This document shows positions 2,422 to 33,876 of a stretch of DNA of 38,192 nt, in pieces (position 1 is the stretch's first letter; each line of letters begins with the position of its first letter). This DNA comes from Jimgerdemannia flammicorona (taxonomy: Eukaryota), in the NCBI GenBank assembly GCA_003990765.1, contig RBNJ01000167.1, positions 1-38,192 of the forward strand. The letters run 5' to 3'. Below the pieces are notes generated by a model. That model did not search any database and had not been told where the DNA came from. It saw only the letters and a program-made list of their open reading frames with translations. Made by a program: the position numbers and the translations under genes.

Positions 2422-2425
2422 ATGC

Positions 2426-7200: not shown

Positions 7201-7220
7201 ACTCTCCCCTTCTTAGCTTT
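7201..7220 (-). other. Polypurine tract of copy A
   Basis: AAAGCTAAGAAGGGGAGAGT directly before the 3' LTR; same tract at 20764-20783, 27369-27388 and 37661-37680. Confidence 0.9.
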
Positions 7221-7625
7221 CAATGTCCTTGTTGGGGCCTTCTACTTTATTCTAGTGTTGTTACACTATTTGGGAGGTCAAAAGTCTGGTAAGGTCCATT
7301 TTCTCAGAAAGTAGCATGCTCATAGTACAGTTGCCTAACACATTGGATTCACATATTAAAGGGTTGTGTGTTCAATGCTGTATGCCAGAAGTGATTCTGA
7401 CATCATTCACTGCTAGAGAATTTCCTCTAAGGAATCTTCTTAAATGTCTATGCCTTGTTTTCCACCAGTGGTATAGGGAGAATAGGCTTGCTTTCAGTTT
7501 TGCTATTTTTCCAGAGATTCAGTATTCTTGTCTTGTTTTGCTGAGTTCTTGGTTTGGTTCACAATAATTATAATATTCAGGAGGATAATATATAGTATGT
7601 ACAGATAGGTGCAGAATATTTGGTT

Positions 7626-10600: not shown

Positions 10601-13528
10601 AGATGGTGAAGAGAGGGCATTTCTTGGCCAATTTCTTGAGTTGTAGCTTATTGATGTGGGTGATCTTTGGTCCAGGGTCACTAGAATTAAGTGGGTCCTT
10701 TTCGCCTTGCAGTTTGAAGTTATGGCGTCCTTTCTTGATGGTCAGAGAATGGTTTACCCAATCAATCATGTGGTTCTCTTGTTTTAACCATAGAGTCCCA
10801 AGGATGATTTCATTGTCAGGAAGTGGTATGATTTGAAGGGTAACATGTACTCGGTAGTTGCCAATTCAGAAGGGTAGATTGCAGACTTCTTTGCTAATAA
10901 CATGTGAGGTTCCATCAGCTGTAGCAACTGCTTGAGTTTGCTGTACTGGGGAGGTAAAGACCTTGAGTCTGTTGGCTGTCTCTTCATTAATGAAGTTGCC
11001 TGAGGCACCACTGTCTATCATAATATTGACAGGTGCTCCGTTGACAAAAGCCTTAAGGGTGAGCAGTTTGTCTGATCTGATAGTGGTGATTTCAGTTGTA
11101 GGAGCCTTTCTTCTGTTGGTTCTTCTTTGAGCTAGTTCATTGAAACAAGAGAAGCAATCATCAATCATTCAGGAAGAGTACATTCCAATACTATAAGGGC
11201 ATCAGCCACTTGGTACATATCCATCTTCTATCTTCTTGTAGAATTGTTCTTCTTTGCTCATAGTAGGTTGGGCTGGGGCCTTGTTTGATGAGCCAAATCC
11301 TTTGGATCCTCAGATGGTGGGTAGTAGTTCAGGGACTTCCTTGACTATCAGGGTTGACTTGATTTTTTGAATAGGATCTGGATAATGCAGAAGCCAATAG
11401 GGATCTTGAAGGGTGTCCAACTGTGATTTTGAATGAGGACAATGATTTCGCCTATGTAATCTTCATCAATGACTCCTCTTTCTACTGAGAGTCCTTTTAG
11501 TGCTAGGCTGCTGCGACAGCATATTCTTCCAACATGTCCTTCAGAGATTTGGATACTGATTCCTGTATAGACTTGTTTGACTTCTCAGTTGGAAACTTTA
11601 GCTTCTTTGGCTGCATACAGGTCATATCCAGCTGCTTTTTAACTTCCTTTGGTTGGGGCCTTAGCAGTTTGTCTTAACTTGACAAAGTCTAGTATTCTGG
11701 TGGTCAGGTTGTTGAGGTGGTGAAGAGTGGTAACAGTTGCTCATATTGCTGTTCAGGGTTTTCGGTTAGGGCAGGCACTGGCCATATGTCCTGTCTTTTG
11801 GTAATAGAAACATGCTCCGCTTCTTCAAAGTTCATTCCTTTCACCTTCAGTAAGTTTCTTGAAGGTACTGGGCTAGGTGGGTTCAGGATTTCTGGGTGTC
11901 CAAGAGGTGGATGTGGAGGGAGCTCGGGATGCTTCATGCTTGGGTTCTTCTTTCTTGGTCCAAGTCCTTTCCTTGTTATTAAATTGTCTTTGGGGCAGAA
12001 TTGGTCTAGCTGTTAGAATTCACTTGACCATGGTCTTGATTCTTGCCAGGCACTATTGTTGGTGATCACAACCAACTGGGCAGCCTTGTTCTTGGATTTT
12101 TCTAGTAAGCCATTCAGGCAGGGCATCAAATAAATTGTCTACTCTTATACCATTTTGTGCTTTATCATTGGTGATGTATCCTAGGGCAACAGTGTTCAGG
12201 AGTGACTCGAGTTTTGTACAGAAGGTTTCAAATTCTTCTTTGCCATATACATCAAATTTGAGGTTACAGAGTTTTACTCGAGATTCAGCAATCATGAGTT
12301 GTTTGAGTCCAGGGGCTGCAGGATGGGCTCCATATCCTGGGGCATTGTTTGCTGCATTCTGAGCAACTACTGTAGGTCGGGTATCCCATGTAAGGGGTTT
12401 TTTAGGAAGGGTTTGCCACCATTCTTTGGCAGGTCCTTGGAAGAATATAACAACTCAGTGGACATAGGCTGTAGTGGTAGCAAAGAGTTGTTCCAGGGTG
12501 TGGTCTTGATTGTTTGTCAGAATGCGGTTGGCAATTCGCTCATTAGTCCATTGATTGGCTTCGAAGTTGGTGTCAACTATACTAATGAAGCTTTGGACTT
12601 CTTGTGCAGTACTATTGAAGGTAGATAGACTCAGATTTTTGGTAGGTCGGGTCTGTTCAGCTAAGGCAGTAATAGTTACTGCCATTATAGCTACTTGGGC
12701 TGTGAGATCAAGAATCTGTTGGTTTGCCATGTTGATTGCTGGAGGTAGTTGGACTGCTGGTAGTGGTGTAGAGTGTGATGGGGTTCTTTGGGTCTGTGTA
12801 AGTTGCTGGAGTAGTAGTTGTGGATCTGGAGTGAGGGCTTGATAGATAGCTGTTTGTTGCTGTGTAGATGTATTCTGTCCTGATGGACGTATGTCTCCTT
12901 TAGTGGTGTATCTAGGATCGAATTCAGTGAGATACTCCTCCTCTTCTTCGGTTTGGTCCCCATATAATTGGGTTTGCTTAGCATCAAAGTAGACAGAATC
13001 AGTTGTATATCTGATTTCAGATGGACTTAATTCAAAGTCAAGTTTAGGTTTGGTGTTGGTTTCAGATTCAGGTAGGGCTGTAGCAGGGCCTGCTTCAGGT
13101 TCAGGGTCAGGTAGTTGATGAAGGGTTTCTCTTGCTTCTTCTTTAAGGATATGGTGGGTCTTGCTGTTCTGGAATCGGTAGTATAAGGCAGTCTTGGTCC
13201 TGGTGTGGTGAAAGTCGGTAGAGTTGAGCCACTTGGCTACAGAGGCTTAGGCTTCATGAGGAACTAAGGCTAGAAAGACTGCTGCTGGTTGTCCTAGATC
13301 ACTCGGATTTGTGGAGCTGACAAAACTCTTGTTGAGAAGAGTAAAGAAGGCTTCAATAAGACCTTCTTTGTCTTGGCTTGCTGGGTGTAGTGCAAGGAGT
13401 TCGGTGAATAGGGTTTCACCTATTTGCTGGTTTAACCGGAGTACTTCTTTCTTTGAATGAAGTTTATCCCACTTGTTGCAGGTGTGGAGGTCAAATTGTT
13501 CTTGTATGTCAGGTTCAATTCTCTTCAA
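7626..13528 (-). pseudogene. gag-dUTPase-pol polyprotein of copy A, disrupted
   Basis: IDSGAS protease, YIDD RT, TDASD RNase H, HHCC and DDE integrase, GPF motif, chromodomain. Multiple stops and frameshifts. 5' boundary uncertain. Confidence 0.92.
11286..11692 (-). pseudogene. dUTPase domain of copy A
   Basis: AAGYDL, GRICCRSS, VIDEDY, IIQI and KGFGSS remnants; contains stops and a frameshift. Confidence 0.88.
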
Positions 13529-13650
13529 ATTGTCAGATAGTTCAGAATAAATTCCAGTTCAGAGGTTGGGCTTTATACCAACTTGTAGGAATTCGCAGAG
13601 GGGTTTGTAGCGGGGTGAGGAAGCATCTTGAAGTGGAATTAGATTGTAAA

Positions 13651-13662
13651 CTGCTGCTACCA
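13651..13662 (-). other. Primer binding site, probably initiator tRNA-Met
   Basis: TGGTAGCAGCAG 3 nt after the 5' LTR, complementary to the ..GCTACCA 3' end typical of eukaryotic tRNAiMet. Decayed copy TGGTAGTAGTGG at 33862-33873. Confidence 0.75.
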
Positions 13663-13665
13663 AGT

Positions 13666-15411
13666 TGTAAGAGGGTTACTTTTTAGGGTAACCATTATGT
13701 AGTTCTGGAAAGGTTTTCTGGATATTCTGGATGTTCTGGAAGACCGTTTTCTTAAGGTCAAGATCAATTTTGTATGGAGTATGTCCTCTACACTTATTGA
13801 TTTCAAGATCAGATTGACATCCCAACCAAAGTCCTTTTTTTTGGACTAGTTCTGGATGTTCAGGATTTTCCGTATTTCAGGAAGTTCAAGAGACTAAGAC
13901 CAGCTTAGTTGAATTGGCATATCACTGCAGACAATACCCAATTAGGAAATTTCGTGATGGGGTTAGAAATGGGACCTAACAGGGGGTGGATTTACTTAAG
14001 AGTTGTTGTGGGTTATGGAATAGGTTTATTTGCTATTCATGATATTACTATGCTAGGAGTAGTTATGTAAAGGGATATGTGGGGAAGTATTCAGGAATGT
14101 TCTTGTGTGTTCAAGTCTGAGATTCTGAGGTCTGGGGGAGAGGGTATTTATACTAGTGAGGGGCTATCTGGACTATGCTAGATATGGATGTAGCACTAAG
14201 TGTCTTGCTGAGTCAGAATACAGTCACGTAGTACAAGTATGATCTGACATATCAAGAGATTGTCTGACTGCTGAGTCAGTTCACAGTCACGTCATATAAT
14301 GCTAATCTAACTATACTATGACTGCTAGGCTATTTATGGATTTAGGCGCTGTCTGGGTAGTCTTCGATAACATCACCATTGATTGCATTATCTCTGATGA
14401 AGTAGTCATCTAGGAAGAGTGGTTCGCGGATTACTTCTCTTTGTTCACTGAGGTAATAGTACATTGGAACTTCGTCTCCATTCCACAGGATAGCATTATC
14501 TGTCTCGTAGGCTAAATAAGGTGTTGGTGGATGAAGGATGGGTGTATTGTCTTCGCTTTCATCAGATTCACTGTCTGTGTACCTTCTATAGGTTACAGTA
14601 CTATGAGTTGCAGGATTGTAGTAAGCTGGTGGCTATGGTTCATATTGCTCATACTCAGGTGGTGGAGTGGTTGATTCAATCTCGAGGGTTGTCTGGAGGT
14701 ACAGGTTGTGTTCTTTGGTCTCTTCATTGTAGTTGAAGTAGTCGGGGGTGAATGCGGGTTGGTATTCGTACCAGTGGTCATTGTCCCAATAAGTCTTGTA
14801 TATAGTTATGAACTGTTGTAAGTTCGTTGGTAAGGTCGGCGGAGTGATCAGGGTTGGCAGAGATCCTTGGCTAGAGGTCATGTCAGCGTCAGAGGGATCA
14901 TTGTCTTCTGCTTCATCTTCATCAAAGTGGATTATATCATAGATGTCCTTCATGGCATATCCAACTTGGGGCATTTGCAGGATTTGATCATTGGGGTGTG
15001 GGAAGGTTCTGTCTGTGGTTTTGATGTACTCGAGGTACTTGTGGTTGAGTTCTTGTATCATGTCGTTGATTTGGCCATAAGACAGGGTAGCAACCATTTT
15101 GGCTGTAGTAACTCGGAGGTGGGGAATAAAGGTGCTATACTCATAGAAGAGTTCTTGATGTTTGTGGGTGATGAGCTTCTGGTGTTGAGACATCTGGATA
15201 ATGTCTGTATCATGGTGGTGTTCGACCATATCTTCCAGGAGGCAGCTGATCTGGTAGTAGCTTGAGATTTGTCCGATTCAGTGGGCCTCGCTAAGCATGT
15301 TCAGAGCATTCCATCAGGCTTCCATGAAGTAGAGTAGTGCCAGGCTATGGATATTCATGAGGGGTAGAGGGTGACGTATAATTTCAGTGGCTTGGAGGTT
15401 GTGTGCTTACA
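13666..15411 (-). repeat. 5' LTR of copy A (1746 bp), with disrupted LTR ORF (stop at 14342-14344)
   Basis: Direct repeat of 5466-7200, followed by the PBS. Confidence 0.95.
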
Positions 15412-16933
15412 GCCTACCTTCTAAACAAGCAGTAGACCATGCTATCACGACTATTTCTGATGCCAAACCAGCCTTCAAGTCAATCTACCATATATCTCTG
15501 AAAGAAATTGATATACTCAAGAAGGAAATTGATGAACTCCTAGAACAAGGATTCATCAGACCCAGTGTGTCACCCTATGGTGCACCAGTCCTTTTTGTTG
15601 TCAAGAAAGGAGGAGACTTATGAATATGTATTGATTACTATGACCTCAATGAATAGACCATCAAGAACTATTGCCCACTACCAAGAATTGATGAAATATT
15701 CGATAGACTTACCAACCCACAATTTATGAGCTCTTTTGACCTGTAAAATGGTTACTGGTAAATCACTATGAAAGAAGAAGATATCTACAAGACAGCCTTC
15801 TGAACTCACTATGGACACTTTAAATTCCTGGTTATGCCTTTTGGCTTAATTAATGCTCCAGCAACCCTCCAAACACTGATGAATACCATCCTGCACCCAT
15901 ACCTGGACAAATTTGTTGTTGTCTACATTGACAATATCCTAGTCTTCAGCAAAACCCTGGAGGAATACCTTGAATACCTTAAACTAGTATTACTGAAACT
16001 CTGTGAAAACTGACTCTTTGCAAAACTCAGCAAGTGTGAATTTCTCCTGAAGGAAATTCAATTTCTCAGACACATTATCACACTAAATAGAATCAAAGTG
16101 GACTCCAGCAAAATCTCCACAATCAAGGAATGGCCCAGACCAAAAAAGCTAAAAGACCTCTTGTCATTCCTGGGATTAGCAAATTATTACAGATAATTTG
16201 TTGCCAACTTTGCCAAAATCGCTACTGCTCTCACCCAAATGACCAAGCACAGCAAGAAAGAAGAACAGCCCTGGACCATGAAATAAGAGAAAGACTTCAA
16301 CAATCTTGCAAATTGAGGACCAGAACAAGATACAGCCTTTCAAGCACTGAAAGATGCCTTGATAACCACTCCAGTACTTTAAGCAGCAAATTTTGCCCTA
16401 CTATATGAAGTCACTACTAATACCTCTGACCTAGCCCTTAGAGTAGTACTTATGTAAGAAGGACACTCTGTAGCCTATCATTCCTGCAAGTTTAATAATG
16501 CTGAAATCAACTATGCAACTTATGAGAAGAAAATGCTAGCCATTGTAGATACTCTGATCAAATGGTAACTATATCAAAAAGGAGTACACTTCACTGTATT
16601 GACTGACCACAAGTCATTAGTCAATATCAAGACACAGGCTACCCTTTCTCAAAAGCAAGCCAGATGGATGAAAGTCCTCACCAACTTTGACTATAAAATT
16701 TAGTATCGTCCTGACAAGGAAAACATTGTTGCTGATGCAATATCCAGACCACCAATCAAAGAAGTTATCCAAACCCTCACCTTGGTTACCAATACTATTA
16801 TGGAATAAATTATTGTAGCATATACTGATGATAAGGAAGCTCAAGCACTTTGAGAAATTCTGAATAGTGATGATACTGACAAGCATACCCAGTACTATCA
16901 ATACCAACTCAAGAACAATGCCATCTACTACAA

Positions 16934-19014
16934 TGTAAGAGAGTTGCTTTTTATAGTAACTGTTACATAGTTCTGGAAGGATTTTCTGAAAGTTCTGGAT
17001 ATTCTGGAAGACTGTTTTCTTATGGTCAAGATCAATTTCATATGGAGTATATCCTCTATGCTTATTGATTTCAAGATTGGGTTGACATCTCAACCAAAGT
17101 CCTTTTTCAGACTAGTTCTGGATATTCAGGATTTTCCGTATTTCAGGAAGTTCAAGAAACTAAGACCAGCTTAGTTGAATTGGCATATCACTGCAGACAA
17201 TACCTAATTAGGAAATTTCATAATAGAGTTAGGAGTAGACCTAATGGGGAGTGGATTTACTTAAGAGTGGTTTGTGGGTTATTAAATAAGTTTATTCGTT
17301 ATTCATGATATTGCTATACTAGGAGTAGTTGTGTAAAGGAATATTGTAGGGAAGTGCTCAGGAGTTGTATTCAGATTGTTCAAGTGTTTAAGTCTTTCAA
17401 GTCTCAGATTCTGAGGTCTGGGAGAGTGGGTATTTATACTAGTGAGGGGCTATCTGGACTATGCTAAATATGGATGTAGTACTTAAGTGCTTTGCTGAGT
17501 CGGAATGCAGTCATGTAGTATAAGTGTGATCTGATATATCAAGAGATCAACTGACTGCTGAGTTAGTTCACAGTCATGTTATATAAGGCTAATCTAACTA
17601 TACTATGACTGCTAAGCTATTTATAGGTTTAGACACTATCTGGGTAGTCTTCAATGATATTACTATTGATGACATCATCTCTAATGAAGTAGTTATCTAG
17701 GAAGAGTGGTTTACGGATTACTTCTCCTTATTGGCTGAGGTAGTAATACATTGGGACTTCATCACCATCCCACAGAATAGCATCATCTGTCTCATATGCT
17801 GGATAAGATGTTAGTGGGCAAAGGTGTAGTGCATCATCTTCACTTTCATTGGTTTTGCTATCTACATACCTTCTATAGGTTACAGCACTATGAGTCATGA
17901 GATTATAGTAAGCTGGCGGCTGTGGTTTATGTCACTCGTACTCAGGTGGTAGAGTGGTTGGTTCAATCTTGAGGGTTGTCTGGAGGTATAGGTTGTATTC
18001 TCCAGTCTCTTCATTGTAGTTGAAGTAATCAGGAGTAAACATGGGTTGATATTCATATCAGTGGTCATTGTTTCAATAAGTCTCATATGCTGTTATAAAT
18101 TGTTGTAAGTTCATCAGCAAGATTGGTAGTGTGATCAGGGTTGGCAGGGATCCTTGACTTGAGGTCATGTCAGTGTCAGAGGGATCATTGTCTTCTGCTT
18201 TATCTTCGTCAAAGTAGATTATATCATAGATATCCTTTATGGCATATTCGACTTGGGGCATTTGCAGGATATGATCATTGGGGTGGGGAAAGGTTCTGTC
18301 TGTGGTTTTGACATACTCGAGGTACTTGTGATTGAGTTCTTATATTATGTTGTCGATTTGGCCATATGACAGGGTAGCAAACATTTCAGCTATAGTAACT
18401 CAGAGGTGGAGAATAACAGTGCTATATTTGTAAAAGAGTTCTCGGTATTTGTGGGCAATGAGTTTCTAGTGTTGAGACATCTGGGTAATGTCTGTATCAT
18501 GGTAGTGTTCGACCATGTCTTCCAGAAGGCAGTCAATCTGGTAGTAGCTTGAGATTTGTCTGATCTGGTGGGCCTCATTCAGCATGTTCAGAGTATTCCA
18601 TCAGGCTTCCATGAAGTAGAGGGGTGCTAGGCTATGGATATTCATGAGGGGCAGAGAGGGTGTAGCTCGGTTGATAATGGCATTCCAAATGTCAGCGTGG
18701 ATACAGTTGTAGATATCAGTGGTCATGTTTGTATGTTTGGAAGTTGTGGTTGTTGTTTGTTTTGGTTCTCTGTTCCAATACATCTCAGTACTCAGTATAT
18801 ATACATTTAGTCCTAATTGATAAGATTCTGTTTGTATGAATCTTGTATTCTGTGACTTTGTGTTGACTCAGCTTTGTACACTGTGACTTTGGTTTGACTC
18901 AGCTTCATGATCAAGCAGGTGATTTCCAGATTTGTTTGGAGGTCATGTATAATTTCAGTGGCTTGTGCAGAGAGTGACATGTGATTTCGGTGGCTTGGAG
19001 GTTGTGCACTTACA
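16934..19014 (-). mobile_element. Solo LTR (2081 bp) inserted in pol of copy B
   Basis: TGTAAG..CTTACA ends, perfect TSD TACAA (16929-16933 / 19015-19019), no internal domain. Confidence 0.95.
17629..18726 (-). pseudogene. LTR ORF copy in solo LTR (1098 nt)
   Basis: Runs from MTTDIYN to DYPDSV-stop; internal stops. Confidence 0.8.
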
Positions 19015-20862
19015 TACAAGGACAGACTGTATGTCCCAAACAACTGAGACCTCTGAAGGACTATCCTATTCGAATGTCATAATGCCCCTACAGTGGGACA
19101 TTTAGGATTTGACAAATGCTATGAAGTTATCTCCCAAAACTTCTATTGACCCTGTATGGCAGATCAGCTCAAAACCTACATCACTTCCTGTAATACCTGT
19201 CAACAAAACAAGTTCTCAACACTAGCAAAACCCAGCTTACTTCACTCTATTCCAGTACCATCCATGAATTGGGAACAAATCTCTATGGACTTTATTGTAC
19301 AACTACTCTGAACCAAGAATGGGAAAGATGCAATTGTTGTCTTTGTAGATTACCTCAGCAAACAAGCCCACTTTGTGCCTACTACCACTACTGCAACAGC
19401 ACTAGACATAGCCACACTCTTATTTGACAACATCTTCCACTATCATGGTCTTCCTAAGATCATTATTAGTGATCGAGACCCGAAATTCACTATCTATTTT
19501 TGGAAAGCCCTCCATGCATACCTTGGAACAAAACTTGCACTATCCACAGCCTTTCACCCAGAAACTGATAGCCAAACTGAAAGAATGAACTGAACTCTAG
19601 AATAAATACTAAAGAACTATGTTTCCTACAGATAAGATGATTGGCATGAACACCTGACCACAGTCAAGTTTGCCTATAACAACAGCAAGCAAGCCTCCCT
19701 AAAAATGACCCCATTCTTCGCCAACACTGGACAAAACCCAAACACCCCTTTGACACTTATCTGAACCACTGAAGAACCCTCCACAGTCGAAGCTGTTGAA
19801 GAATTCCTACTTTGAATACATAATCTGAGCCAGATCGCAATTGAGAATTTATCATGAGCTCAAGAACAACAGTCACAGTATGTTAACCAACACCACCAAG
19901 AAGAAACCTTTGACATTAGAGAAAAAGTTCTACTAGACATCCAAGGGTATCCAGTAGACAACCTGAAGCACAGACCATCTATGAAGCTGAATAGTAAGTT
20001 CATTGGACCATTCGAAGTCATCATACAAGTCTCTCCCACTTCCTACAAATTGGTGCTACCAGACACTATTAAGATTCACCCAGTCTTTAATGTTCAATAT
20101 CTCAAGTGATATAATGAAAACAATGATGAACTATTCCCAAACCAAACTACCAAACCACCTGCATCTGTCATTATTAATGATCAAGAAGAGTATGAAGTTG
20201 AACAAATCCTCAACAAACATGGCCACAAGAACTACCCTGAGTACCTTGTTAAATGGAAAGGTTATCTGATCCATAATGCAACCTGAGAACCCAAGACCAA
20301 TCTCCAGAATACTACTGACTTAGTTCAGGAATATGATTTCTTGAACAACTGAAATCCAAATACTCTAATACCTATCAGTATATAATATATATTACTCTCC
20401 TGAACATTATAATCATCACAAATGAAATCAAGAACTCAGCAAGTTAAGATATAAAAATACCAACTCTCTGGAAAAAATAGTAAAACTGAAAGCCAGTCTA
20501 TTCTCCCCATACCACTGGTGGAAAATGAGGCATAGATATTTAAGAAGATTCCTTAGAGGAAATTCTCTAGCAGTGAATGACATTAGAATCACTTCCAGTA
20601 TATAGCATTGAACACACAACCCTTTAACATATGAATCCAATACATTAGGCAACTGTACTATAAGCATGCCACTTTTTGAAAAAATGGACTTTATCAGACT
20701 TTTGATCTCCCAAACAGTGTAACAATACTAGAACAAAATTAGAAGGCCCCGATGAGGACGTCAAAAGCTAAGAAGGGGAGAGTTATAAGTATACAACCTT
20801 CAAGCCACCAAAATTACATGCAACCTCTGAATAAATCTGGAAATCACCTGCTCAGTCATAAA

Positions 20863-20970
20863 GCTGAGTCAAACTGAAGTCACAGTACACAAAGCTGAGT
20901 CAATATAAAGTCACAGAACACAAGATTTACACAAACAGAATCTTACTAATTAGGACCAAATGCATATATA
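20863..20970 (+). promoter_or_regulatory. Putative promoter of the LTR ORF (2x GCTGAGTCA plus TATATA)
   Basis: GCTGAGTCA at 20863 and 20894; TATATA at 20965-20970, ~70 bp before ATG 21041. Similar in other full LTRs. Motif evidence only. Confidence 0.45.
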
Positions 20971-21040
20971 CTGAGCACCAAGACATGTCGAACAGAGAAC
21001 CAAAACAAACAACAACTATAACTTCTGAATATACACAAAT

Positions 21041-22138
21041 ATGACCACTGAGATCTACAACTGCATCCATGCTGACATTTGGAATGCCATTGTCAATCGA
21101 GCCACACCCTCTCTGCCCCTCATGAATATCCATAGCCTAGCACCTCTCTATTTCATGGAAGCCTAATAGAATGTCCTGAATATACTTAATGAGGCCTACT
21201 GAATTGGACAAATCTCAAGCTACTATCAGATTGGCCATCTCCTAGAAGACATGGTTGAACACCATCATGACATGGACATTACCCAGATATCTCAACACCA
21301 GAAGCTCATTGCCCACAAACACAGAGAACTCTTCTATGAGTACAGCACCTTTATTCCCCACCTCTGAGTTACTATCAGTGAAATGGTTGCTACCCTGTCC
21401 TATGGCCAAATCGACGACATGATATAAGAACTCAACCACAAGTACCTTGAGTATGTCCAGACTACAGACAGAACCTTCCCACACCCTGATGACCACATCC
21501 TACAAATATCCCAAATCAGATATGCTATGAAGGATATCTATGATATAATCCAGTTCGATGAAGATAAAGCAGAAGATAATGATCCCTCTGACACTGATAT
21601 GACCTCAAGCCAAGGATCTCTGCTAATACTAATCACACTACCAACCTTGCCAATGAACTTACAATAGTTCATAACTACATATGAGGCTTATTGGGACAAT
21701 GACCACTGGCATAAATATCAACCTGCATTCACTCCCGATTACTTCAACTATAATGAAGAGACTGGAGAACACAACCTGTATCTCCAGACAACCCTCGAGA
21801 TTGAACCAACCACTCCACCACCTAAGTACAAGTAACATGAACCATAGCCACCAATATACTACAATCCCATAACTCATAGTGCTGTAACCTATAGAAGGTA
21901 TGCAGACAGCGAATCTGATAAAAGCAAAGATAATGTACCACTCCTTTACCCCCCAATACCTTATCCAGCATATGAGACAGATGATGCTATCCTGTGAGAT
22001 GGTGATGAAGTTCCAATATTTTATTATCTCAGTAAATAAGGAGAAGTAATCTGTGAACCACTCTTCCTAGATAACTACTTCATTAGAGATAATATCATCA
22101 ATGGTGATGTCATCAAAGACTACCCAGATAGTGTCTAA
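21041..22138 (+). pseudogene. LTR ORF copy in B 3' LTR (1098 nt)
   Basis: ATG ACC ACT GAG at 21041 to TAA at 22136-22138; internal stops. Confidence 0.8.
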
Positions 22139-22201
22139 ACTTATAAATAGCTTAGCAGTCATAGTATAGTTAGATTAGCCTTGTATGACATGACTGTGAA
22201 C

Positions 22202-22457
22202 TGACTCAGTAGTCAGATGATCTCTTGACATATCAGATCACACTTGTACTATGTGACTATATTCCGACTCAGTAAGGTACTTAGTGCTACATCCATATCT
22301 AGTATAGTCCAGATAGCCCTCACTAGTATAAATACCCCCTCCCCCAGACCTCAGAATATCAGACTTGAACAATCTGAACACAACTTCTGATTAATTTCTC
22401 ACAATATTCCTTTACACAACTACTCCTAGTATAGTAATATCATGAATAGCAAATAAA
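22202..22457 (+). promoter_or_regulatory. Putative main LTR promoter and poly(A) signal
   Basis: TGACTCA at 22202, TATAAAT at 22327-22333 (conserved in all six complete LTRs), AATAAA at 22452-22457. Confidence 0.55.
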
Positions 22458-25329
22458 CCTATTTAATAACCTACAAACTACTCTTAAGTAAATCTGCTCC
22501 CCATTACATCCCACTCCTAACCCCATCACGAAATTTCCTAATTGGGTATTGTCTGCAGTGATATGCCAATTCAACTAAGCTGGTCTTAGTTTCTTGAACT
22601 TCCTGAAATACAGAAAATCCTGAACATTCAGAACTAGTCTGAAAAAAGGACTTTGGTTGAGACATCAACCCGATCTCGAAATCAATAAGCATAGAGGATG
22701 TACTCCATATAAAATTAATTTTGACTATAAGAAAACAATCTTCCAGAATATCCAGAACTTCCCAAAAACTCTTCCAGAACTATGTAATAGTTACCCTAAA
22801 AAGCAACCCTCTTATAGACTCTCAGTAGAAGGAGGAGTCATTGATGAGAATTATACAGGTAAAATTATTATCCTCATCTGAAACCATAGTTGGACACTCT
22901 TCAAGATCTCTATTGATTTCTGCATCACCCAGATCCTATTTGAAAAAATCGAGTCAACTCTGACAGTCAAGGAAGTTCCTGAATTACTATCTACTATCTG
23001 AGGATCTAAAGGATTTAGCTCATCAAACAAGGCCCTAGCCCAACCTACTATGAGCAAAGAAGAATAATTCTACAAGAAAATCAAAGATAGATATATACCA
23101 AGTGGCCAATGCCCCCATGGCATTGAAATATACTCTTCATGAATGATTGATGATTGCTTCTCTTATATCAATAAATTGGCTCAAAAAAGAACCAATAGAA
23201 GGAAAGCTCCTATAATCAAAATCACTACCATTGGATCAGACAAACTACTTATACTTCAAGCTTTTATCAATCAAGCACCTGTCAAGATTATGATAGACAG
23301 TAGTACCTCAGACAACTTTATTAATGAAGAAACAACCAATAGACTTAAGGTCTTCATCTCTCTAGTATAACAAACTCAAGCAGTTACCATAGCTGATGGA
23401 ATCTCACATATTATCAGCAAGGAAGTCTGCAATCTGTACTTCCAAATTGATAACTACTGAGTATATGTTACTCTCCAGATTGTACCACTTCCTGACAATG
23501 AGATCATCCTTAGAATCCTATGGTTAAAACAAGAGAACCCTATGATCAATTGGGTAAACTATTCTCTGACTATTAAGAAAGGACATCATGTAAGGCAAAA
23601 AGAACCCACTCAGCTCTAGTGACTCTGGACCAAAGATTACCCACATCAATAAGCTACAGCTTAAGAAATTGGCCAAAAAATGTCCTCTCTTTACCATCTC
23701 CATCCACTCAACCAAAGGAGAACCTGAGAACTCTGAAGAAGACTTTTCCAAAGTTGACAGTCATGTCAGACTACTACTTCAGAAATTCCAAGATATATTT
23801 CCAAAGAAGCTCCCAAAAGACCTACCTCCTAAATGAGCAGTAGACTATACCATCAAGACCATTCCAGATACCAAGCCAGCCTTCAAATCAATCTACCACA
23901 TATCTCTGAGAGAAATTGATACACTCAAGAAGGAAATCAATGAACTCCTAAAATAAGGATTCATCAGACCCAGTGTATCACCCTATGGTGCACCAGTCCT
24001 CTTTATTGTAAAGAAAGGAGGAAACTTGTAAATGTGCATTGATTACTGTAACCTCAATGAACAGACCATCAAGAACTATTGCCCACTGCTCAGAATCAAT
24101 AAAATATTCAATAGACTTACCAACCTGCAATTTATGAGCTCTTTTGACCTGTGAAATAGTTACTAGCAAATTGCCATAAAAGAAGAAGACATCTATAAGA
24201 CAGCTTTCCAAACTTGCTATAGATACTTTGAGTTCCTGGTTATGTCTTTTGGCTTAACTAATACTCCTGTAATCTTCCAGACCCTGATGAATATCATCCT
24301 GTATCTATACCTAGATAAATTTGTTATTATCTATATTGACGACATTCTAGTCTTCAGTAAAACCCTAGAGGAATATCTTGAACACCTCAAACTAGTACTA
24401 CTGAAACTTCAAGAAAACTGACTCTTTGCAAACTTAGTAAGTGTAAATTCCTCCTGAAAGAAATTCAATTCCTTGGACATATTATCATATCAAATAGAAT
24501 CAAAGTGGACCCTAGCAAAATCTCTGTAATCAAGGAATGTCCAGACCCAAGAAGCTGAAAGACCTCTAGTCATTTCTAGGATTAGCAAACTATTATAGGT
24601 GATTTGTTGCCAACTTTGCCAAAATCGCTACTGCCCTCACCCAAATGACTAAGCACAGTAAGAAAGAAGAATAGCCTTAGACTATGAAATAAGAAAAAGA
24701 CTTCAACAATCTTGTAAATTAGAGACCTGAGCAGGATACTGCCTTTTAAGCACTAAAGGATACCTTGATAACCACTCCAGTACTTTAAGCAGCAAACCCT
24801 ATCCTACCATATGAAGTTACTACTGATGCCTCTGATCTAGCCCTTGGAGCAGTACTCATGCAAGAAGGATACCCTGTGGCCTATCATTTCCACAAGTTCA
24901 ATAATGCCAAAATCAACTATACAACTCATGAGAAGGAAATGTTAGCCATTATAGACACTCTGATCAAATGACAACCATACCTAGAAGAAGCACACTTTAC
25001 AGTATTGACTGACTACAAGTCATTAGTCAACATTAAGACCCAGACTACTCTTTCTTGAAAGCAAGCCAGATGGATGAAAGTCCTTACCAACTTTGACTAT
25101 GAAATCCAGTACTACCCTAATAAGGAAATATTGTTGCCAATGCAATCTCCAGATCACTAATCAAAGAAGTTATTCAAACTCTCACCATGGTTACAAACTC
25201 CATCATAGAACAAATTATCACTATATGTGCTGATGATAAAGAAGCTCAAGTACTCTAAGAAATTCTAAAATATGATGATACTGATAAGTATACCCAGTAC
25301 AACTAATACCGACTCAAGGACAATACTAT

Positions 25330-27368
25330 TGTAAGAGGGTTGCTTTTTAGAGTAACTGTTATGTAGTTCTGGAAGGGTTTTCTGGAGGTTCTGGATATTC
25401 TGGAAGACCATTTTCTTATGATCAAGATCAATTTTGTATGGAGTATGTCCTCTATGCTTATTGATTTCAAGATCGGGTTGACATCTCAACCAAAGTCCTT
25501 TTTTGGACTAGTTCTGGATGTTCAGGATTGTCCATATTTCAGGAAGTTCAAGAAACTAAGACCAGCTTAGTTGAATTGGCATATCACTGCAGACAATACC
25601 CAATTAGGAAATTTCGTGATGGGGTTAGGAATGGGACCTAACAGAGAGCAGATTTACTTAAGAGTGGTTTGTGGGTTATGGAATAGGTTTATTTGCTATT
25701 CATGATATTGCTATACTAGGAGTAGTTGTATGAAGGGATATTGTGGGAAGTATTCAGGAATGTTCTTATATGTTCAAGTCTGTTTAAGTCTGAGATTCTG
25801 AGGTCTGGGGGAGGGGGTATTTATACTAGTGAGGGGCTATCTGGACTATGCTAGATATAGATGTAGCACTAAGTACTTTGCTGAGTCAGAATGCAGTCAT
25901 GTAGTATAAGTGTGATCTGACATGTCAAGAGATCGTCTAACTGCTGAGTCAGTTCACAGTCATGTTGTACAAGGCTAATCTAATTATACTATGACTGCTA
26001 GGCTATTTATGGGTTTAGGCACTGTCTGGGTAGTTCTCGATGACATCACCATCGATTGCATCATCTCTGATGAAGTAGTCATCTAGGAAGAGTGGTTTGC
26101 GGATTACTTCTCCTTATTCACTGAGGTAATAGTATATTGGAACTTCATCTCCATCTCACAGAATAGCATCGTTTGTCTCATATTCTGGATAAGGTGTTGG
26201 TGGGCGAAGGATGGGTGTATTGTCTTCACTTTCATCAGATTCACTATCTGCATACCTTCTATAGGTTACAGCACTATGAGTTACAGGATTGTAGTAAGCT
26301 GGCAGCTGTAGTTCATGTTGCTCATACTCAGGTGGTGGAGTGGTTGGTTCAATCTCAAGAGTTGTCTGAAGGTACAGGTTGTGTTCTCTGGTCTCTTTAT
26401 TATAGTTGAAGTAATCGGGGGTGAATGTGGGTTGGTATTCGTGCCAGTAGTCATTGTCACAATAAGTCTCATATGTAGTTATGAACTATTGTAAGTTCAT
26501 CGGCAAGGTTGGCGGTGTGACCAGGGTTGGCAGAGATCCTTGGCTAGAGGTCATGTCAGTGTCAGAGGGATCATTGTCTTCTGCTTCGTCTTCATCGAAG
26601 TGGATTATATCGTAGATGTCCTTCATGGTGTATCCAACTTGGGGCATTTGTAGGATATGATTATTGGGGTGTGGGAAGGTTCTGTCTGTGGTTTTGACAT
26701 ACTCGAGGTACTTCTGGTTGAGTTCTTATATCATGTCATCGATTTGGCCATAGGATAGGGTAGCAATCATTTTGCTGGTAGTAACTTAGAGGCAGGGAAT
26801 AACGGTGTTGTACTCGTAGAAGAGTTCTCGATACTTGTGGGTGATAAGCTTCTGGTGTTGAGACATCTGGGTAATGTCTGTATTGTGGTGGTGTTCGACC
26901 ATGTCTTCCAAGAGGCGGCCAATCTGGTAGTAGCTTGAGATTTGTCCAATTCGGTGGGCCTCACTAAGTATGTTCAGAGCATTCCATCGGGCTTCTATAA
27001 AGTAGAGGGGTGCTAGGCTATAGATATTCATGAGGGGCAGAGGTGGTGTGGCTTGGTTGACAATGGCATTCCAAATGTCAGCACAGATATGGTTGTAGAT
27101 TTCAGTGGTCATATTTGTGTGTTTGGAAGTTGTGGTTGTTGTTTGTTTTGGTTCTCTAATTCGATGCATCTCGGTGCTCAGTATATATGCATTTGGTCCT
27201 GATTGGTAAGGTTCTGTTTGTGTAAATCAAGTGTTCCATGACTTCATATTGACTCATCTTTGTGCGCTGTAACTTCGGTTTAACTCAGCTTTGTGATCAA
27301 GCAGGTGATTTCCAGATTTGTTCAGAGGTCACGTGTAATTTCGGTGGCTTGGAGATTGTGTGCTTACA
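25330..27368 (-). repeat. 3' LTR of copy D (2039 bp)
   Basis: TGTAAG..CTTACA ends, abuts the PPT. Confidence 0.95.
26015..27112 (-). pseudogene. LTR ORF copy in D 3' LTR (1098 nt)
   Basis: Runs from MTTEIYN to YPDSA-stop; internal stops. Confidence 0.8.
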
Positions 27369-27794
27369 ACTCTCCCCTTCTTAGCTTTCGACGTCCTTGT
27401 CGGGGCCTTCTAATTTTGTTCTAGTGTTGTTACACCATTTGGGAGGTCAAAGGTCTGATAAGGTCCATTTTTCTCAGAAAGTGGCATGCTTGTAGTACAG
27501 TTGCCTAACGCATTGGATTCACACATTAAAGGGTCATATGTTCAATGCCATACGCCAGAAGTGATTCTGACATCATTTACTGCTGGAGAATTTCCTCTAA
27601 GGAATCTTCTTAATATCTATGCCTCATTTCCCATCAGTAGTATGGGGAGAATAGGCTTGCTTTCAGTTTTGCTATTTTTCCAGAGGGTTGGTATTCTTAT
27701 CTTGTTTTGCTGAGTTCTTGATTTGGTTCATGATAGTTATAATGTTCAGGAGGGTAATATATAATATGTATGGGTAGGTGCAGAGTATTTGGTT

Positions 27795-27965
27795 CTAGTT
27801 GTTCAAGGAATCATATTCCTGAACTAGGTCGGTAGCATTCTGGAGATTGGTCTTGGGTTCCCAGGTTGCATCGTGGATCGGGTAACCTTTCCATTTGACA
27901 AGGTACTCAGGGTGGCTCTTGTTGCCACATTTGTTGAGGATTTGTTCAACTTCATACTCTTCTTG
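27795..27965 (-). other. C-terminal chromodomain of integrase
   Basis: EEYEVEQIL..EYLVKWKGY..DATWEP matches the canonical chromodomain pattern. Confidence 0.93.
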
Positions 27966-30900
27966 GTCATTAATAATGACAGGTGCAGGTGGTTTGGTAG
28001 TCCGGTTTGGAAATAGTTCGTCATCATTCTCATTATATCGCTTGAGACGTTGAACATTAAAGACTAGGTGAATCTTAATGGTATCTGGTAGCGCCAATTT
28101 GTAGGAGGTTGGAGAGACTTGTGCAATGATTTCAAATGGTCCAATGAACTTGCTGTCCAGCTTTGTGGATGGTCTGTGCTTGAGGTTGTCAACTCAGTAT
28201 CCTCTGATATCTAGTAGGACCTTTTCTCCAATATCAAAAGTTTCTTCTCGGCAGTGTTGGTTAATATACTGTGATTGTTGTTCTTGAGCTCGCGATAAAT
28301 TCTCGATGGCAATCTGGCTTAAATTACATATTTGGAGTAAGAATTCTTCAACAGCTTCGACTGTAGAGGGTTCTTCAGTGGTTTGGATAAGTGTCAAAGG
28401 CATGTTTGGATTTTGTCCAGTGTTGGCGAAGAATGGGGTTATTCCGAGAGAGGTTTGCTTGCTATTGTTATAGGCAAACTCGACTGTAGTGAGGTATTCA
28501 TGCCAGTCATCTTGTCTGTAGAAAACATAGTTCCTTAGCATTTGTTCTAGAGTTCGGTTCATTCTTTCAGTTTGGCCATCAGTTTCTAGGTGAAAGGCTG
28601 TAGATAGTGCAAGTTTTGTTCCAAGGTGTGCATGGAGGGCTTTCCAAAAGTAGCTGGTGAATTTCGGATCTCGGTCACTAACAATGATCTTAGGAAGACC
28701 ATAATAGCAGAAGATGTTGTCAAATAAGAGTGTGGCTATATCTGGTGCTGTTGCAGTAGTGGTAGTAGGCACAAAGTGGGCTTGTTTGCTGAGATAGTCT
28801 ACAAAGACAACAATTGCATCTTTCCCATTCTTGGTTCAGGGTAGTTATATAATGAAGTCCATAGAGATTTGTTCCCAATTCACAGATGGTACTGGGATAG
28901 GGTGGAGTAAGCCGGATTTTGCTAGTGTTGAGGACTTGTTTCATTGGCAGGCATCACAGGAAGTAATGTAGGTCTTGAGCTGATCTGCCATACGGGGCCA
29001 ATAGAAGTTTCAGGAAATAACTTCATAGCATTTATCAAATCCTAAATGTCCAACTGTAGGGGCATCATGACATTCGAATAGGATAGTCCTTCGGAGGTCT
29101 CGGTTGTTTGGGATATACAATCTATTCTTGTAGTAGATAGCATTATCCTTGAGTTGGTATTGATTATACTGGGTATGCTTGTCAGCATTATCATTGTTCA
29201 GGATTTCTCAGAGTGCTTGAGCTTCTTTATCATCAACACATGCTGCGATGATTTGTTCCATGATAGTGTTGGTAACCAAGGTCAGAGTTTGGATAACCTC
29301 TTCGATTGGTGGTCTGGAGATTACATCGGCAACAATATTTTCCTTGCCAGGGCGGTACTGGATTTCATAGTCAAAGTTGGTGAGGACTTTCATACATCTG
29401 GCTTGCTTTCAAGAAAGGGTAGCCTGGGTCTTGATGTTGACTAATGACTTGTGGTCAGTCAATACAGTGAAGTGTGCTCCTTCTAGATATGGTTGCCATT
29501 TGATCAGAGTGTCTACGATGGCTAGCATTTCCTTCTCATGAGTTGCGTAGTTGATTTCGGCATCATTGAACTTGCGGGAGTGATAGGCCACAGGATGTCC
29601 TTCTTGTATGAGCACTGCTCCAAGAGCTAGGTCAGAGGCATCAGTAGTGACTTCATATGGTAGGGTAGGATTTGCTGCTTGAAGTACTGGAGTGGTTATC
29701 AAGGCATCCTTCAGTACTTGAAAGGTGGTATCTTGCTCGTGTCCCCAATTTACAAGATTGTTGAAGTCTTTCTCTTGTTTCATGGTCCAAGGTTGTTCTT
29801 GTTTCTTGCTGTGCTTGGTCATTTGGGTGAGGGCAGTAGCGATTTTAGCAAAGTTGGCAACGAATTGCCTGTAATAGTTTGCTAATCCCAGGAATGACTG
29901 GAGGTCTTTCAACTTCTTGGATCTGGGCCAATCCTTAATTGCAGAGATTTTGCTGGGGTCCACTTTGATTCCATTTGGAGTGACAATGTGTCTAAGGAAT
30001 TGCATTTCTTTCAGAAGAAATTTGCACTTGCTGAGTTTTGCAAAGAGTCAGGTTTCTTGGAGTTTCAGTAGTACTAGTTCAAGGTGTTCAAGATGTTCCT
30101 CCAGGGTTTTGCTGAAGACTAGGATGTCGTCAATATAGACAACAACAAATTTGTCCAGGTATGGATGCAGAATGGTATTCATTAGTGTCTGGAAGGTTGC
30201 TGGAGCATTAGTTAAGCCAAAGGGCATAACCAGGAACTCAAAGTGTCCATAGCGATCAGAAAGCTGTCTTGTAGATGTCTTCTTCTTTTATGACAATTTG
30301 CTAGTAACCATTTCGCAGGTCAAAAGAGCTCATGAATTGTGGGTTGGTGAGCCTATCGAATATTTCATCAATCCTTGGTAGTGGGCAACAGTTTTTGATG
30401 GTCTGTTCATTGAGATCGTGGTAGTCAATGCACATTCGCAGGTCTCCTCCTTTTTTGACAATGAAGAGGACTAGTGCACCATAGGGTGATACACTGGGTC
30501 TGATGAATCCTTGTTCCAGCAGTTCGTCGATTTCCTTCTTGAGTGCATCAATTTCTCTTGGAGATATGTGGTAGATTGACTTGAAGGCTGGTTTGGCATC
30601 TGGGATGGTCTTGATTGCATGGTCTACTGCTCGTTTGGGAGGTAGGTCTTTCAGGAGCTTCTTTGGGAATATGTCTCAGAATTTCTGCTGACATGGTTGT
30701 CAACTTTGAAAAAATCTTCTTCAGAGTTCTCGGGTTCTCCTTTGGATGGTCAGATGGAGATGGCAAAGAGAGGGCATTTCTTGGCCAATTTCTTGAGTTG
30801 TAGCTTATTGATGTGGGTAATATTTGGTCCAGGGTCACTAGAATTAAGTGGGTCCTTTTCGCCTTGCAGTTTGAAGTTGTGGCATTCTTTCTTGATGGTC

Positions 30901-31442
30901 AGAGAATGGTTTACCCAATCAATTATGGGGTTTTCTTGTTTTAACCATAGAGTCCCAAGGATGATTTCATTGTTAGGGAGTGGTACGATTTGGAGGGTAA
31001 CATGTACTTAGTAGTCACCAATTCAGAAGGGTAGGTTGCAGACTTCTTTGCTAATAATATGTGAGGTTCCATCAGCTGTAGCAACTGCTTGAGTTTGTTG
31101 TACTGGAGAGGTGAAGACCTTGAGTCTGTTGGCTGTCTTTTCATTAATGAAGTTGCCTGAGGCACCACTGTCTATCATAATCTTGACAGGTGCTCCGTTG
31201 ACAAAAGCCTTAAGAGTGAACAGTTTGTCTGATCCAATGGTGGTGATTTCAGTTGTAGGAGCCTTTCTTCTATTGGTTCTTCTTTGAGCCAGTTCATTGA
31301 CACAAGAGAAGCAATCATCAATCATTCAGGAAGAGTACATTCCAATACCATGAGGGTATCGGCCACTTGGTACATATCCATCTTTGATCTTCTTGTAGAA
31401 TTGTTCTTCTTTACTCATAGTAGATTGGGCTGGGGCTTTGTT

Positions 31443-31850
31443 TGATGAGCCAAATCCTTTGGATCCTCGGATGATGGGTAGTAGTTCAGAGACTTCCTTG
31501 ACTGTCAGGGTTGACTCGATTTTTTCGAATAGAATCTGTGCAATACAGAAGCCCATAGAGATCTTGAAGGGTGTCCAACTGTGGTTTCGAATGAGGACAA
31601 TAATTTCACCTGTGTAATCCTCATCAATGACTCCTCCTTCTACTGAGAGTCCTTTCAATGCTAGGCTGCTGCGACAGCATATTCTTCCAACATGTCCTTC
31701 AGGGATTTGGATACTGATTCCTGTGTAGACTTGTTTGACTTCTTGGTTGGAAACTGTAGCTTCTTCGGCTGCATACAGATCATATCCGGCTGCTTTTTGA
31801 CTTCCTTTGGTTGGGGCCTTAGCAGTTTGTCTTAACTTGACAAAGTCTAG
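31443..31850 (-). pseudogene. dUTPase domain of copy D (trimeric family, five motifs)
   Basis: AAGYDL / GRICCRSS / GGVIDEDYTGEI / CIAQI / RGSKGFGSS, in frame between zinc knuckle and protease. Confidence 0.93.
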
Positions 31851-33876
31851 TGTTCTGGTGGTCAGGTTGTTGAGGTGGTGAAGAGTGGTAATAGTTGCTC
31901 ATGTTGCTGTTCAGAGTTTTCAGTTGGGGCAGGCACTGGCCATGTGTCCTGTCTTTTGGCAATAGAACCATGCTCTGCTTCTTCGAAGTTCATTCCTTTC
32001 GCCTTCAGTAAGTTTCTTGAAGGTACTTGGCTTGGTGGGTTCATTATTTCTGGGTGTCCAAGAGGTAGATGTAGAGGGAACTTGGGGTGCTTCATGCTTG
32101 GGTTCTTCTTTCTTAGTCCAAGTCCTTTCCTTATTGTTAAATTGTCTTCGGGGCAGAATTGGTCTGGCTGTTAGGATTCGCTTGACCATGGTCTTGATTC
32201 TTGTCAGATACCATTGTTGGTGATCACAACCAACTGGGCAGCCTTGTTCTTGAATTTTTCTAGTAAGCCATTCAGGCAGGGCATCAAATAAATGGTCTGC
32301 TCTTGTACCATTTCGTGCTTCATCATTGGCAATATATCCTAGGCCAACAGTGTTCAGGAGTGACTCGAGTTTTGTACAGAAGGTTTCAAATTCTTCTTTG
32401 CCATGTACATCAAATTTGAGGTTGCGGAGTTTTACTCGAGATTCAGCAATCATGGTTTCACTGCGATATTGAGCAATCATGAGTTGTTTGAGTCCAGGGG
32501 CTGCAGGATGGACTCCATATCCTGGGGCATTGTTTGCTGCATTCTGGGCAACTACTGCAGGTCAGGTATCCCATGTGAGGGGTTTTTCAGAAAGAGTTTG
32601 CCACCATTCTTCAGCAGGTCCTTGGAAGAATGTAACAACTTGGCAGACATAGGCTGTAGTTGTAGCAAAGAGTTGTTCCAGAGTGTGATCTTGATTGTTT
32701 GTCAGAACACAGTCAGCAACTCGCTCATTGGTCCATTGATTGGCTTTGAAGTTGGTGTCAACTATACTAATGAAACTTTGGACTTCTTGTGTAGTACCAT
32801 TAAAGGTAGGTAGGCTCAGATTTTTGGTAGGTCAGGTCTGTTCAGCTAAGGCAGTAATGATTTCTGCCATTATGGCTACCTGGGCTGTGAGGTCAAGAAT
32901 CTGTTGGTTCACCATGTTGTTTACTGGAGGTGGCTGGACTGCTGGTAGTGGTGTTACTGGTACTACTTAAGATACTGGTGCAGAGTATAATGGGGTTCTT
33001 TGGGTCTGTGTAAGTTGCTGGAGTAGTAGTTGTGGGTCTGGAGTGAGGGCTTGATAGATAGCTATTTGTTGCTGTATAGGTGTATTCTGTCCTGATGGAT
33101 GTGTGTCTCCTTCAGTGGTGTATCCGGGATTTAATTCACTGAGATACTCCTCCTCTTCTTCGGTTTGTTCCCTGTATAATTGGGTTTGCTCGGCATCAAA
33201 TTAGACAGAATCAGTTATATATCTGATTTCAGACAGACTTAATTCAAAGTCAAGTTCAGGTTCGGTATTAGTTTCAGATTCAGGTAGGGCTGTAGCAGGG
33301 CCTGCTTCAGGTTCGGGGTCAGGTAGTTGATGAAGGGTTTCTCTTGCTTCTTCTTTAAGAATATGGTGGGCCTTGCTGTTCTGGAATCAGTAGTATAATA
33401 CGGTCTTGGTCCTGGTATGGTGAAAGTCAGTAGAGTTGAGCCACTTGGCTACAGAGGCTTGGGCTTCGTGAGGAACTAAGGCTAGAAAGACTGCTGCTGG
33501 TTGTCCTAAGTCGCTTGGATTTGTGGAGCTGACAAAACTCTTGTTGAGAAGAGTAAAGAAGGCTTCAATAAGACCTTCTTCATCTTGACTTGCTGGGTAT
33601 AGTGCAAGGAGTTCGGTGAATAGAGTTTTACCTATTTGCTGGTTTAACCAGAGTACTTCTTTTTTTGAATGAAGTTTATCCCACTTGTTGCAGGTATGAA
33701 GGTCAAATTGTCCTTGTATGTCAGGTTCAATTCTCTCCAGATTGTCAGATGGTTTGGATAAATTTCAGTTCAGAGGTTGGGCTTTATACCAACTTGTAGA
33801 AATTCACAGAGGGGTTTGTAGCAGGGTGAGGAAGCATCTTGAAGCGGAATTGGATTGAAAACCACTACTACCAAGT

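Follow-up and report, generated by a model that had tools for sequence, protein, structure and literature searches.

The stretch examined here, positions 21041-22138 (plus strand), lies in a 38,192-nucleotide (nt) window, the whole stretch of DNA analysed (Jimgerdemannia flammicorona, assembly GCA_003990765.1, contig RBNJ01000167.1). It is a reading frame carried inside a long terminal repeat (LTR) of a Ty3/gypsy retrotransposon. The window is a nest of one family of these elements, in which seven LTR copies of approximately 2.03-2.04 kb, where complete, were found, and the frame in the LTR runs on the same strand as gag-pol. The copies, designated A to G, and the open reading frame (ORF) of each are as follows:

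20781-22814, plus strand: LTR D; polypurine tract (PPT) directly before it
21041-22138, plus strand: ORF copy D, in the 3' LTR of a plus-oriented element; 10 internal stops
5466-7148, minus strand: LTR A, the 3' LTR of element 1; 5' end short by approximately 350 nt
6143-7147, minus strand: ORF copy A; 334 codons (6146-7147) plus TAA, zero internal stops; start codon and first 31 codons deleted
13665-15370, minus strand: LTR B, the 5' LTR of element 1; 5' end truncated
14342-15370, minus strand: ORF copy B; 5'-truncated, 3 internal stops
16934-18965, minus strand: solo LTR C, with an interrupted plus-strand element on either flank
17629-18726, minus strand: ORF copy C; 8 internal stops
25329-27371, minus strand: LTR E, the 3' LTR of element 2
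26015-27112, minus strand: ORF copy E; 5 internal stops
33876-35919, minus strand: LTR F, the 5' LTR of element 2; 93.0% identity to E
34563-35660, minus strand: ORF copy F; 4 internal stops
37730-38046, plus strand: LTR fragment G, with the first approximately 26 codons of the frame; the start reads ATA, followed by an early stop

Copies C, D, E and F each hold a frame of exactly 1098 nt (365 codons) from ATG to TAA, and these were found at the coordinates and on the strands cited in the original prediction, which had been made from the sequence of this window. The prediction had also presented these four copies as ORFs, which did not hold: each contains between four and ten internal stops, with all three stop types represented under the standard code, and none appears among the nine ORFs of at least 150 amino acids listed for the window under that code. 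It is the length of the frame that is conserved and not its openness. The claim that every LTR carries the same frame stood in so far as all seven copies have it, with A and B being 5'-truncated and G only a fragment. Every copy in the window is thus broken or truncated, and the gene is pseudogenised here. The copies are old and dead, with a divergence between paired LTRs of approximately 7% (E and F as listed above; 115 differences in 1682 sites for A and B).

Position of the frame within the LTR

The LTRs have the termini TGTAAG..CTTACA, with a PPT (AAGAAGGGGAG) adjoining the 3' LTR and a sequence resembling a primer-binding site (PBS; TGGTAGTAGTGG) following the 5' LTR. Within the LTR, the ORF spans positions 260-1357 of 2043 (columns 261-1358 of the 2058-column LTR alignment). 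With its start 260 nt into the LTR and the PPT at the LTR edge, the ORF is not located in the interval between pol and the PPT. Nor is it the tail of an internal ORF, since the frame is closed before the LTR edge is reached: upstream of the ATG it extends without a stop for no more than 4-47 codons in those four copies that keep this region, the edge being 86 codons away.

On the 3' side of the ORF, the motif TATAAATA is invariant in six of six copies (columns ~1549-1556), and an AATAAA, also present in six of six, lies approximately 140 nt past it. On a conventional reading of these motifs the LTR would be divided into a U3 of approximately 1585 nt, an R of approximately 130 nt and a U5 of approximately 340 nt, which would place the frame wholly within U3. 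A gene in this position, 3' of the PPT, thus belongs to U3; every cycle restores it in the two LTRs, and solo LTRs keep it. This agrees with the arrangement that had been predicted, as the window shows two copies per element as well as one in solo LTR C. The putative regulatory features of LTR D are:

22326-22336, plus strand: GTATAAATACC, putative TATA box of the main (genomic RNA) promoter; invariant in six of six copies, approximately 190 nt past the ORF stop
22450-22458, plus strand: AAATAAAC, putative poly(A) signal setting the R/U5 border; in six of six copies in the alignment
20964-20971, plus strand: ATATATAC, TATA-like motif, candidate promoter of the ORF; approximately 70 nt before the ATG, in all four copies keeping the region
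20853-20923, plus strand: 31-nt tandem repeat of 2.3 copies in the 5' part of U3; TGAGTCA in each unit

These features can also be arranged differently, with the ORF lying in a very long R instead of in U3. Genomic RNA would then start from the upstream TATA-like box (LTR position ~185), and the ORF would be its first cistron, ahead of gag. The conserved TATA-like motif and the TGAGTCA repeats upstream of the ATG are compatible with this layout, as is the A at position -3 of the ATG. However, the best TATA box is TATAAATA, which together with the AATAAA following it points to a conventional R of approximately 130 nt located 3' of the ORF, and an R of approximately 1.5 kb with a first cistron of 1098 nt would block scanning to gag. 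A location in R is considered very doubtful, and the placement in U3 is retained below.

Mutational decay of the copies

C>T or G>A changes make up 72 of the 86 polarised post-insertion changes (84%), in the contexts CpA (36), CpC (19), CpG (10) and CpT (7), and the CpG observed/expected ratio of the window is 0.25. This pattern resembles a signature of cytosine deamination or of a process like repeat-induced point mutation (RIP), with CpT largely spared. Inactivation after insertion proceeded mainly through such C-to-T and G-to-A changes, turning Arg, Gln and Trp codons into stops, and truncation contributed further in copies A and B and in fragment G. At the stop-bearing codon columns (n = 13), the other copies read CGA, CAA, CAG or TGG; hence at 13 of 13 the alternative is a codon for Arg, Gln or Trp that one or two transitions would convert into a stop.

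That stops of all three types align with Gln, Trp or Arg codons of other copies is also what would be seen if TAA, TAG or TGA had been reassigned and were read as sense, in which case the four full-length copies would be intact. Against this, exchanges of CGA to TGA and of TGG to TAG are not synonymous under known reassignments, and the terminal stop is at the same position in six copies and in P0001, one of two database relatives described below. Moreover, neither P0001 nor P0002 contains a stop when read with the ordinary code, gag-pol has frameshifts besides its 38 stops, and the mutation spectrum is that of a general C>T decay. A genetic code with reassigned stops was rejected on the nonsynonymous exchanges, the common terminal stop, the open relatives and the gag-pol frameshifts, and is scarcely credible.

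Evidence for a selected gene

The six-copy LTR alignment (MAFFT) comprises 2058 columns, with 1098 (53%) in the ORF. None of its 13 distinct gap runs falls inside the ORF (binomial p=5e-5), in line with the earlier claim that the length variation of the LTRs is confined to the sequence outside the frame. The frame of copy A has no stops in 334 codons, as compared to a mean of 19.7 and a minimum of 7 in dinucleotide shuffles, while the two other sense frames contain 12-43 stops across the six copies. Codon structure is also evident in the distribution of substitutions. Transversions, which are unaffected by C>T hypermutation, occupy 7, 5 and 22 columns at codon positions 1, 2 and 3, respectively (chi-square p=5e-4), and transitions occupy 99, 50 and 132 (p=1e-8). 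Between elements 1 and 2, the ratio of position 3 to position 2 divergence is approximately 3.1 in the ORF and 1.7-2.8 in three blocks of gag-pol.

Between the two LTRs of one element, whose divergence can only be neutral, Nei-Gojobori omega was 0.38-0.39, a value that is biased downward because approximately 90% of the changes are transitions. Two classes of differences were therefore compared directly: a pre-insertion class, consisting of sites at which both LTRs agree within element 1 and within element 2 and the elements differ, and a post-insertion class, consisting of sites that differ between the two LTRs of one element. The numbers of nonsynonymous to synonymous differences (N:S) were 16:24 before insertion and 96:54 after it (odds ratio 0.375, Fisher p=0.007). 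This test is conservative, because parallel hypermutation or gene conversion between LTRs shifts the first class toward the neutral ratio. Splitting the differences of LTR pairs in this manner offers a reusable way to separate selection from decay by hypermutation.

A long frame without a gene could arise from the A/C-rich composition of the sense strand or from cis-regulatory constraint on U3. The sense strand is indeed poor in T and G, and the in-register antisense frame is fairly open too, with 4-11 stops. Against this explanation, a stop-free frame was obtained in 0 of 2000 dinucleotide shuffles, position 3 of the codons is the most variable even for transversions, N:S differs between the pre- and post-insertion classes and the two gene-called relatives are open. 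It is considered extremely unlikely. The indel, codon-position and N:S tests, together with the two open relatives, uphold the selection on the frame that had been proposed. The frame is a real protein-coding gene that was formerly under purifying selection.

The predicted protein and its relatives

The product of copy A has an isoelectric point (pI) of 4.37 and is rich in Tyr (8.7%), Glu, Asp and Pro. No hydrophobic segment is present, the highest Kyte-Doolittle mean over 19 residues being 0.88, which is consistent with the transmembrane helix and signal peptide having been judged absent in the original prediction. The product had also been said to belong to no recognisable family, and no family match was obtained for it in Pfam, PDB sequences or HMMER representatives. 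Pfam at E<=1, using three copies, gave no credible family, the only hits being RAMP (0.019) and TMEM51 (0.26), both under the cut-offs, and a comparison with PHROGs showed no credible match for the ORF product. In the ESM Atlas, the best feature score was 0.77 (copy A); the Atlas model of P0001 has a pLDDT of 0.39 and a best TM score of 0.30. Low-confidence models suggest that the N-terminal half is helical to approximately residue 170 and that short strands follow in the C-terminal half. A tblastn search with copy A against the window returned only the LTR copies; all other matches had E>=0.7, and there was no similarity to gag-pol.

Protein searches covered 5.8 billion clustered proteins (word-indexed; near, shorter and longer lengths) and, exhaustively, 1.84 billion HMMER representatives. 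Among the matches of the word-indexed and HMMER searches, P0001 and P0002 were the only real relatives, the latter search giving three matches in total. P0001 (247 amino acids, on a 998-bp contig) is open, 67-68% identical, with two in-frame gaps of two residues, and ends at the same ..YPDS C-terminus as the window copies. P0002 (128 amino acids, on an 1180-bp contig) is open and 87-88% identical, and starts with MTTEIYN as do the window copies. In the alignment with P0001, aromatic blocks that are conserved alternate with variable acidic linkers. P0003, a repeat protein of 1459 amino acids (E=1e-5, best stretch at query residues 208-243), was judged to be spurious. Scans of metagenome contigs gave 534 pattern matches for the alignment and 92 for P0002, none of which was confirmed by tblastn.

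Two PPxY motifs were identified, at residues 260 and 270. Five of the six window copies have both motifs intact, the second reading LPAY in copy E, and P0001 has neither. An interpretation of these motifs as late domains was consequently set aside as a lead only.

The orphan character of the protein, which has no domain of a retroelement type, and its lack of similarity to the gag-pol of the element would also suit a host gene, or a fragment of one, that was passively captured 3' of the PPT and hitch-hikes in the LTR without serving the element. In the available parts of two reviews, LTR elements are described as capturing ORFs (PMC6431247, PMC5408684). The signal of purifying selection, however, comes from differences by which two lineages of the element diverged with the gene already in their LTRs, and the frame is kept in a relative that is only 67% identical, with all gaps in-frame. 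Further, among proteins of 586-2000 residues neither a longer nor a fused cellular form turned up, a weak argument, and one with uncertain coverage of eukaryotic genomes. Passive capture without function is regarded as quite unlikely; only the lack of function is disfavoured by these points, and capture may still have been the origin of the gene.

The carrier element

The internal regions of the two elements flanked by the LTR pairs are:

27372-33875, minus strand: internal region of element 2; gag(CCHC)-dUTPase-PR-RT-RNaseH-INT-SH3-chromodomain, where PR is protease, RT reverse transcriptase and INT integrase
7154-13664, minus strand: internal region of element 1

In element 2, one frame encodes a near-complete polyprotein with 38 stops, part of the RT being in another frame. 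Pfam analysis of this polyprotein identified a dUTPase (PF00692, E=7.9e-34) at residues 685-811, with the CCHC knuckle of gag before it, followed by an aspartic protease (882-997), RVT_1 (1207-1294), RNase H (1377-1501) and integrase (1591-1759). The zinc-binding and core domains of the integrase and a Tf2-type SH3 domain were also identified, with a chromodomain (1974-2022, E=3.5e-16) at the C-terminal side. Element 2 (25329-35919) is surrounded by a 5-bp target-site duplication, ATAGT. The original assignment of the carrier to Ty3/gypsy is borne out by the PR-RT-RNaseH-INT order and the chromodomain. By its TG..CA LTRs, PPT, PBS, target-site duplication and domain order, the carrier is a dUTPase-bearing Ty3/gypsy chromovirus. 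The dUTPase is a rare accessory domain in retrotransposons, reported from a few fungal and rotifer elements. Chromoviruses bearing a dUTPase have been described from fungi (PMC2864245), and a host among the fungi is plausible for the present element.

The family was also identified on contigs of a soil-metagenome run (7742 pieces, 946 with a likeness of 99% or more) and in three 'organism A' runs; no RNA run was listed as carrying it, and the run that matches best may stem from the same source as the window. The contigs of runs X1, X2, X11 and X12, which are short, collapsed and of unrecorded library type, gave no usable joints; the single joint within the ORF stretch was seen in one contig, with a depth of 2.4 and a side of 27 letters. 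Variants lacking 223 or 281 nt of the region that separates the pol stop from the PPT (27421-27703) occur in contigs of runs X2 and X11, and the length of this spacer varies within the family. Between the gag regions of elements 1 and 2 there are two 27-nt gaps, at alignment columns 895 and 1395; these are multiples of three and suggest variation of in-frame repeat units.

Solo LTR C is inserted in a plus-strand copy (15413-22814) and element 2 in another (22817-38046), both in minus orientation. By element position the two insertions fall at one place to within approximately 8 nt, at element-2 coordinates 6788-6792 and 6780-6783. LTR C is 86% identical to E and F, as compared to 93% between E and F, and since C diverges more than E and F do from each other, independent insertions at a hotspot seem likelier than a duplicated insertion.

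Other features of the window lie outside these elements. At 72-980 (minus strand), two stop-free frames of 80 and 151 amino acids may belong to a remnant of a hAT-type transposase; they gave no Pfam match at E<=0.01. Arrays of minisatellites with periods of 12-72 nt occupy 2.9 kb at 2099-4957, where long frames are artefacts of the repeats. This block has a strong skew of G over C, the GC skew being 0.54 at 4001-5000.

Proposed working of the gene

Taken as a whole, the stretch at 21041-22138 is probably one of seven decayed copies of an accessory gene that lies wholly in the U3 of a dUTPase-bearing chromovirus and was once under selection. In the genomic RNA, this gene is the 3'-terminal 'ORF3', which reverse transcription copies into both LTRs, and in the active lineage the frame was kept by purifying selection on the protein. 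Transcription may have started at a promoter of the gene's own in the first 260 nt of U3, composed of the tandem TGAGTCA repeat and the TATA-like box approximately 70 nt before the ATG. If the RNA was then polyadenylated at the signal within the LTR, every LTR would make up a complete transcription unit of approximately 1.5 kb. Alternatively, the protein could be translated from a spliced subgenomic RNA. Of these routes the gene's own promoter is tentatively favoured, at somewhat under an even chance, because of the TATA-like box and the repeated bZIP-type sites; the spliced RNA is a less likely candidate, and other routes take up the remainder. TGASTCA is taken here to be an AP-1/Gcn4-type (bZIP) site.

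The product would be a soluble, acidic (pI 4.4), Tyr/Pro-rich protein, helical in its N-terminal half and with the aromatic blocks in its C-terminal half. Our best guess is a non-enzymatic adaptor or regulator that acts in trans and serves the replication of the element. A bolder version is that each LTR, solo LTRs included, is an autonomous gene (bZIP-site/TATA promoter, 365-codon ORF and poly(A) signal) for such a trans-acting factor, perhaps an adaptor that brings in host machinery, such as WW-domain ubiquitin ligases bound by the PPxY pair, and so aids replication or blunts silencing; this is considered unlikely. The anti-silencing or host-manipulating role suggested in the original prediction is a conjecture that the analysis neither strengthened nor weakened.

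Several observations weigh against an accessory gene with the working proposed above. Searches of Pfam, the 1.84 billion HMMER representatives, PDB sequences and the ESM Atlas gave no homologue whose function is known, and the AlphaFold2 models were unusable, with a mean pLDDT of 30.3 for the full-length alignment and 43.7 for the N-terminal half. Such low values are compatible with an orphan protein and also with a largely disordered product. P0001 and P0002 are both fragments cut by contig ends, and no complete intact copy was seen in the window or among the database relatives. The PPxY pair is probably not the conserved functional core. The selection tests are based on six related copies from one window, with only 40 pre-insertion differences. 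As to the promoter, it is read from consensus motifs only; the enrichment of TGASTCA in the window is not significant (17 occurrences vs 10.9 +/- 3.0 expected, with 17 reached in 6 of 100 shuffles), and its occurrences across the LTRs share ancestry and are not independent.

Comparison with known systems

The sag gene of mouse mammary tumour virus (MMTV) is a gene of several hundred codons in the U3 of a betaretrovirus LTR, 3' of the PPT, so that both LTRs receive a copy, and among the promoters it can use is one inside the LTR. It is the closest positional analogue of the gene described here, which likewise lies 3' of the PPT and, as judged from the motifs, in U3. In contrast to Sag, the protein has no hydrophobic segment that could serve as a type II membrane anchor (as seen from the maximum hydropathy mean given above) and no match to the Sag family in Pfam at E<=1, and it belongs to a Ty3/gypsy chromovirus without env and not to a retrovirus.

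The ORFs of nef (human and simian immunodeficiency viruses, HIV/SIV) and of bel/bet (foamy viruses) begin before the LTR and only overlap U3. What these share with the present gene is that they are 3'-terminal accessory genes of LTR retroelements reaching into U3. The frame described here differs from nef in beginning inside the LTR, in a product that starts with MTTE and not with the glycine of Nef-type myristoylation, and in the lack of a Pfam match; it differs from bel/bet in being wholly in the LTR, again with no Pfam match.

Extra ORFs of gypsy elements, such as those of the plant Ogre/Tat/Athila elements and the ORF3s of rotifer elements, are described in the available parts of two reviews as internal, located 3' of pol and replacing or standing beside env (PMC6431247, PMC5408684). 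As these sources present them, they resemble the gene in the LTR in being lineage-specific, often orphan and 3' of pol; here, in contrast, the PPT precedes the ORF and the gene is part of the LTR itself. Among dUTPase-bearing elements, PosPlaTy3-3 of Postia placenta is reported to have the dUTPase at the amino-terminus of Pol (PMC2864245), and Tmt1-type elements of Tuber are cited as having it between PR and RT (PMC6431247). PosPlaTy3-3 is similar to the present carrier, both being gypsy chromoviruses with a dUTPase at the amino-terminal side of Pol; in the present carrier it lies before PR. An LTR-borne ORF is not mentioned in the available portions of the descriptions of PosPlaTy3-3, the Phanerochaete elements or Tmt1, in which the present family differs from them. 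The legend of Figure 3 in PMC2864245 names an 'add. ORF' of unknown function, to which the accessible text gives no location. A preprint (bioRxiv 10.64898/2026.05.04.722472) was rejected as a precedent, as 'LTRs encode' refers there to LTR elements in general.

No retrotransposon with a gene inside its LTR was found in the searchable full-text literature, a scope that leaves aside Repbase, Dfam, GyDB and the subscription literature. Within this searchable literature, a prior description of the gene was not found.

Significance

Accessory genes in U3 are a hallmark of complex retroviruses. If each LTR of this family is an autonomous gene as outlined above, it would be a retrotransposon counterpart of these retroviral genes, and every transposition and every recombination between LTRs would leave a copy from which a trans-acting factor could be expressed. 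With a selected gene lying wholly in the LTR, a solo LTR would be potentially a complete gene, beyond its role as a relic promoter or enhancer, and the dosage of the element-encoded factor would scale with the number of LTRs and not with the number of intact elements.

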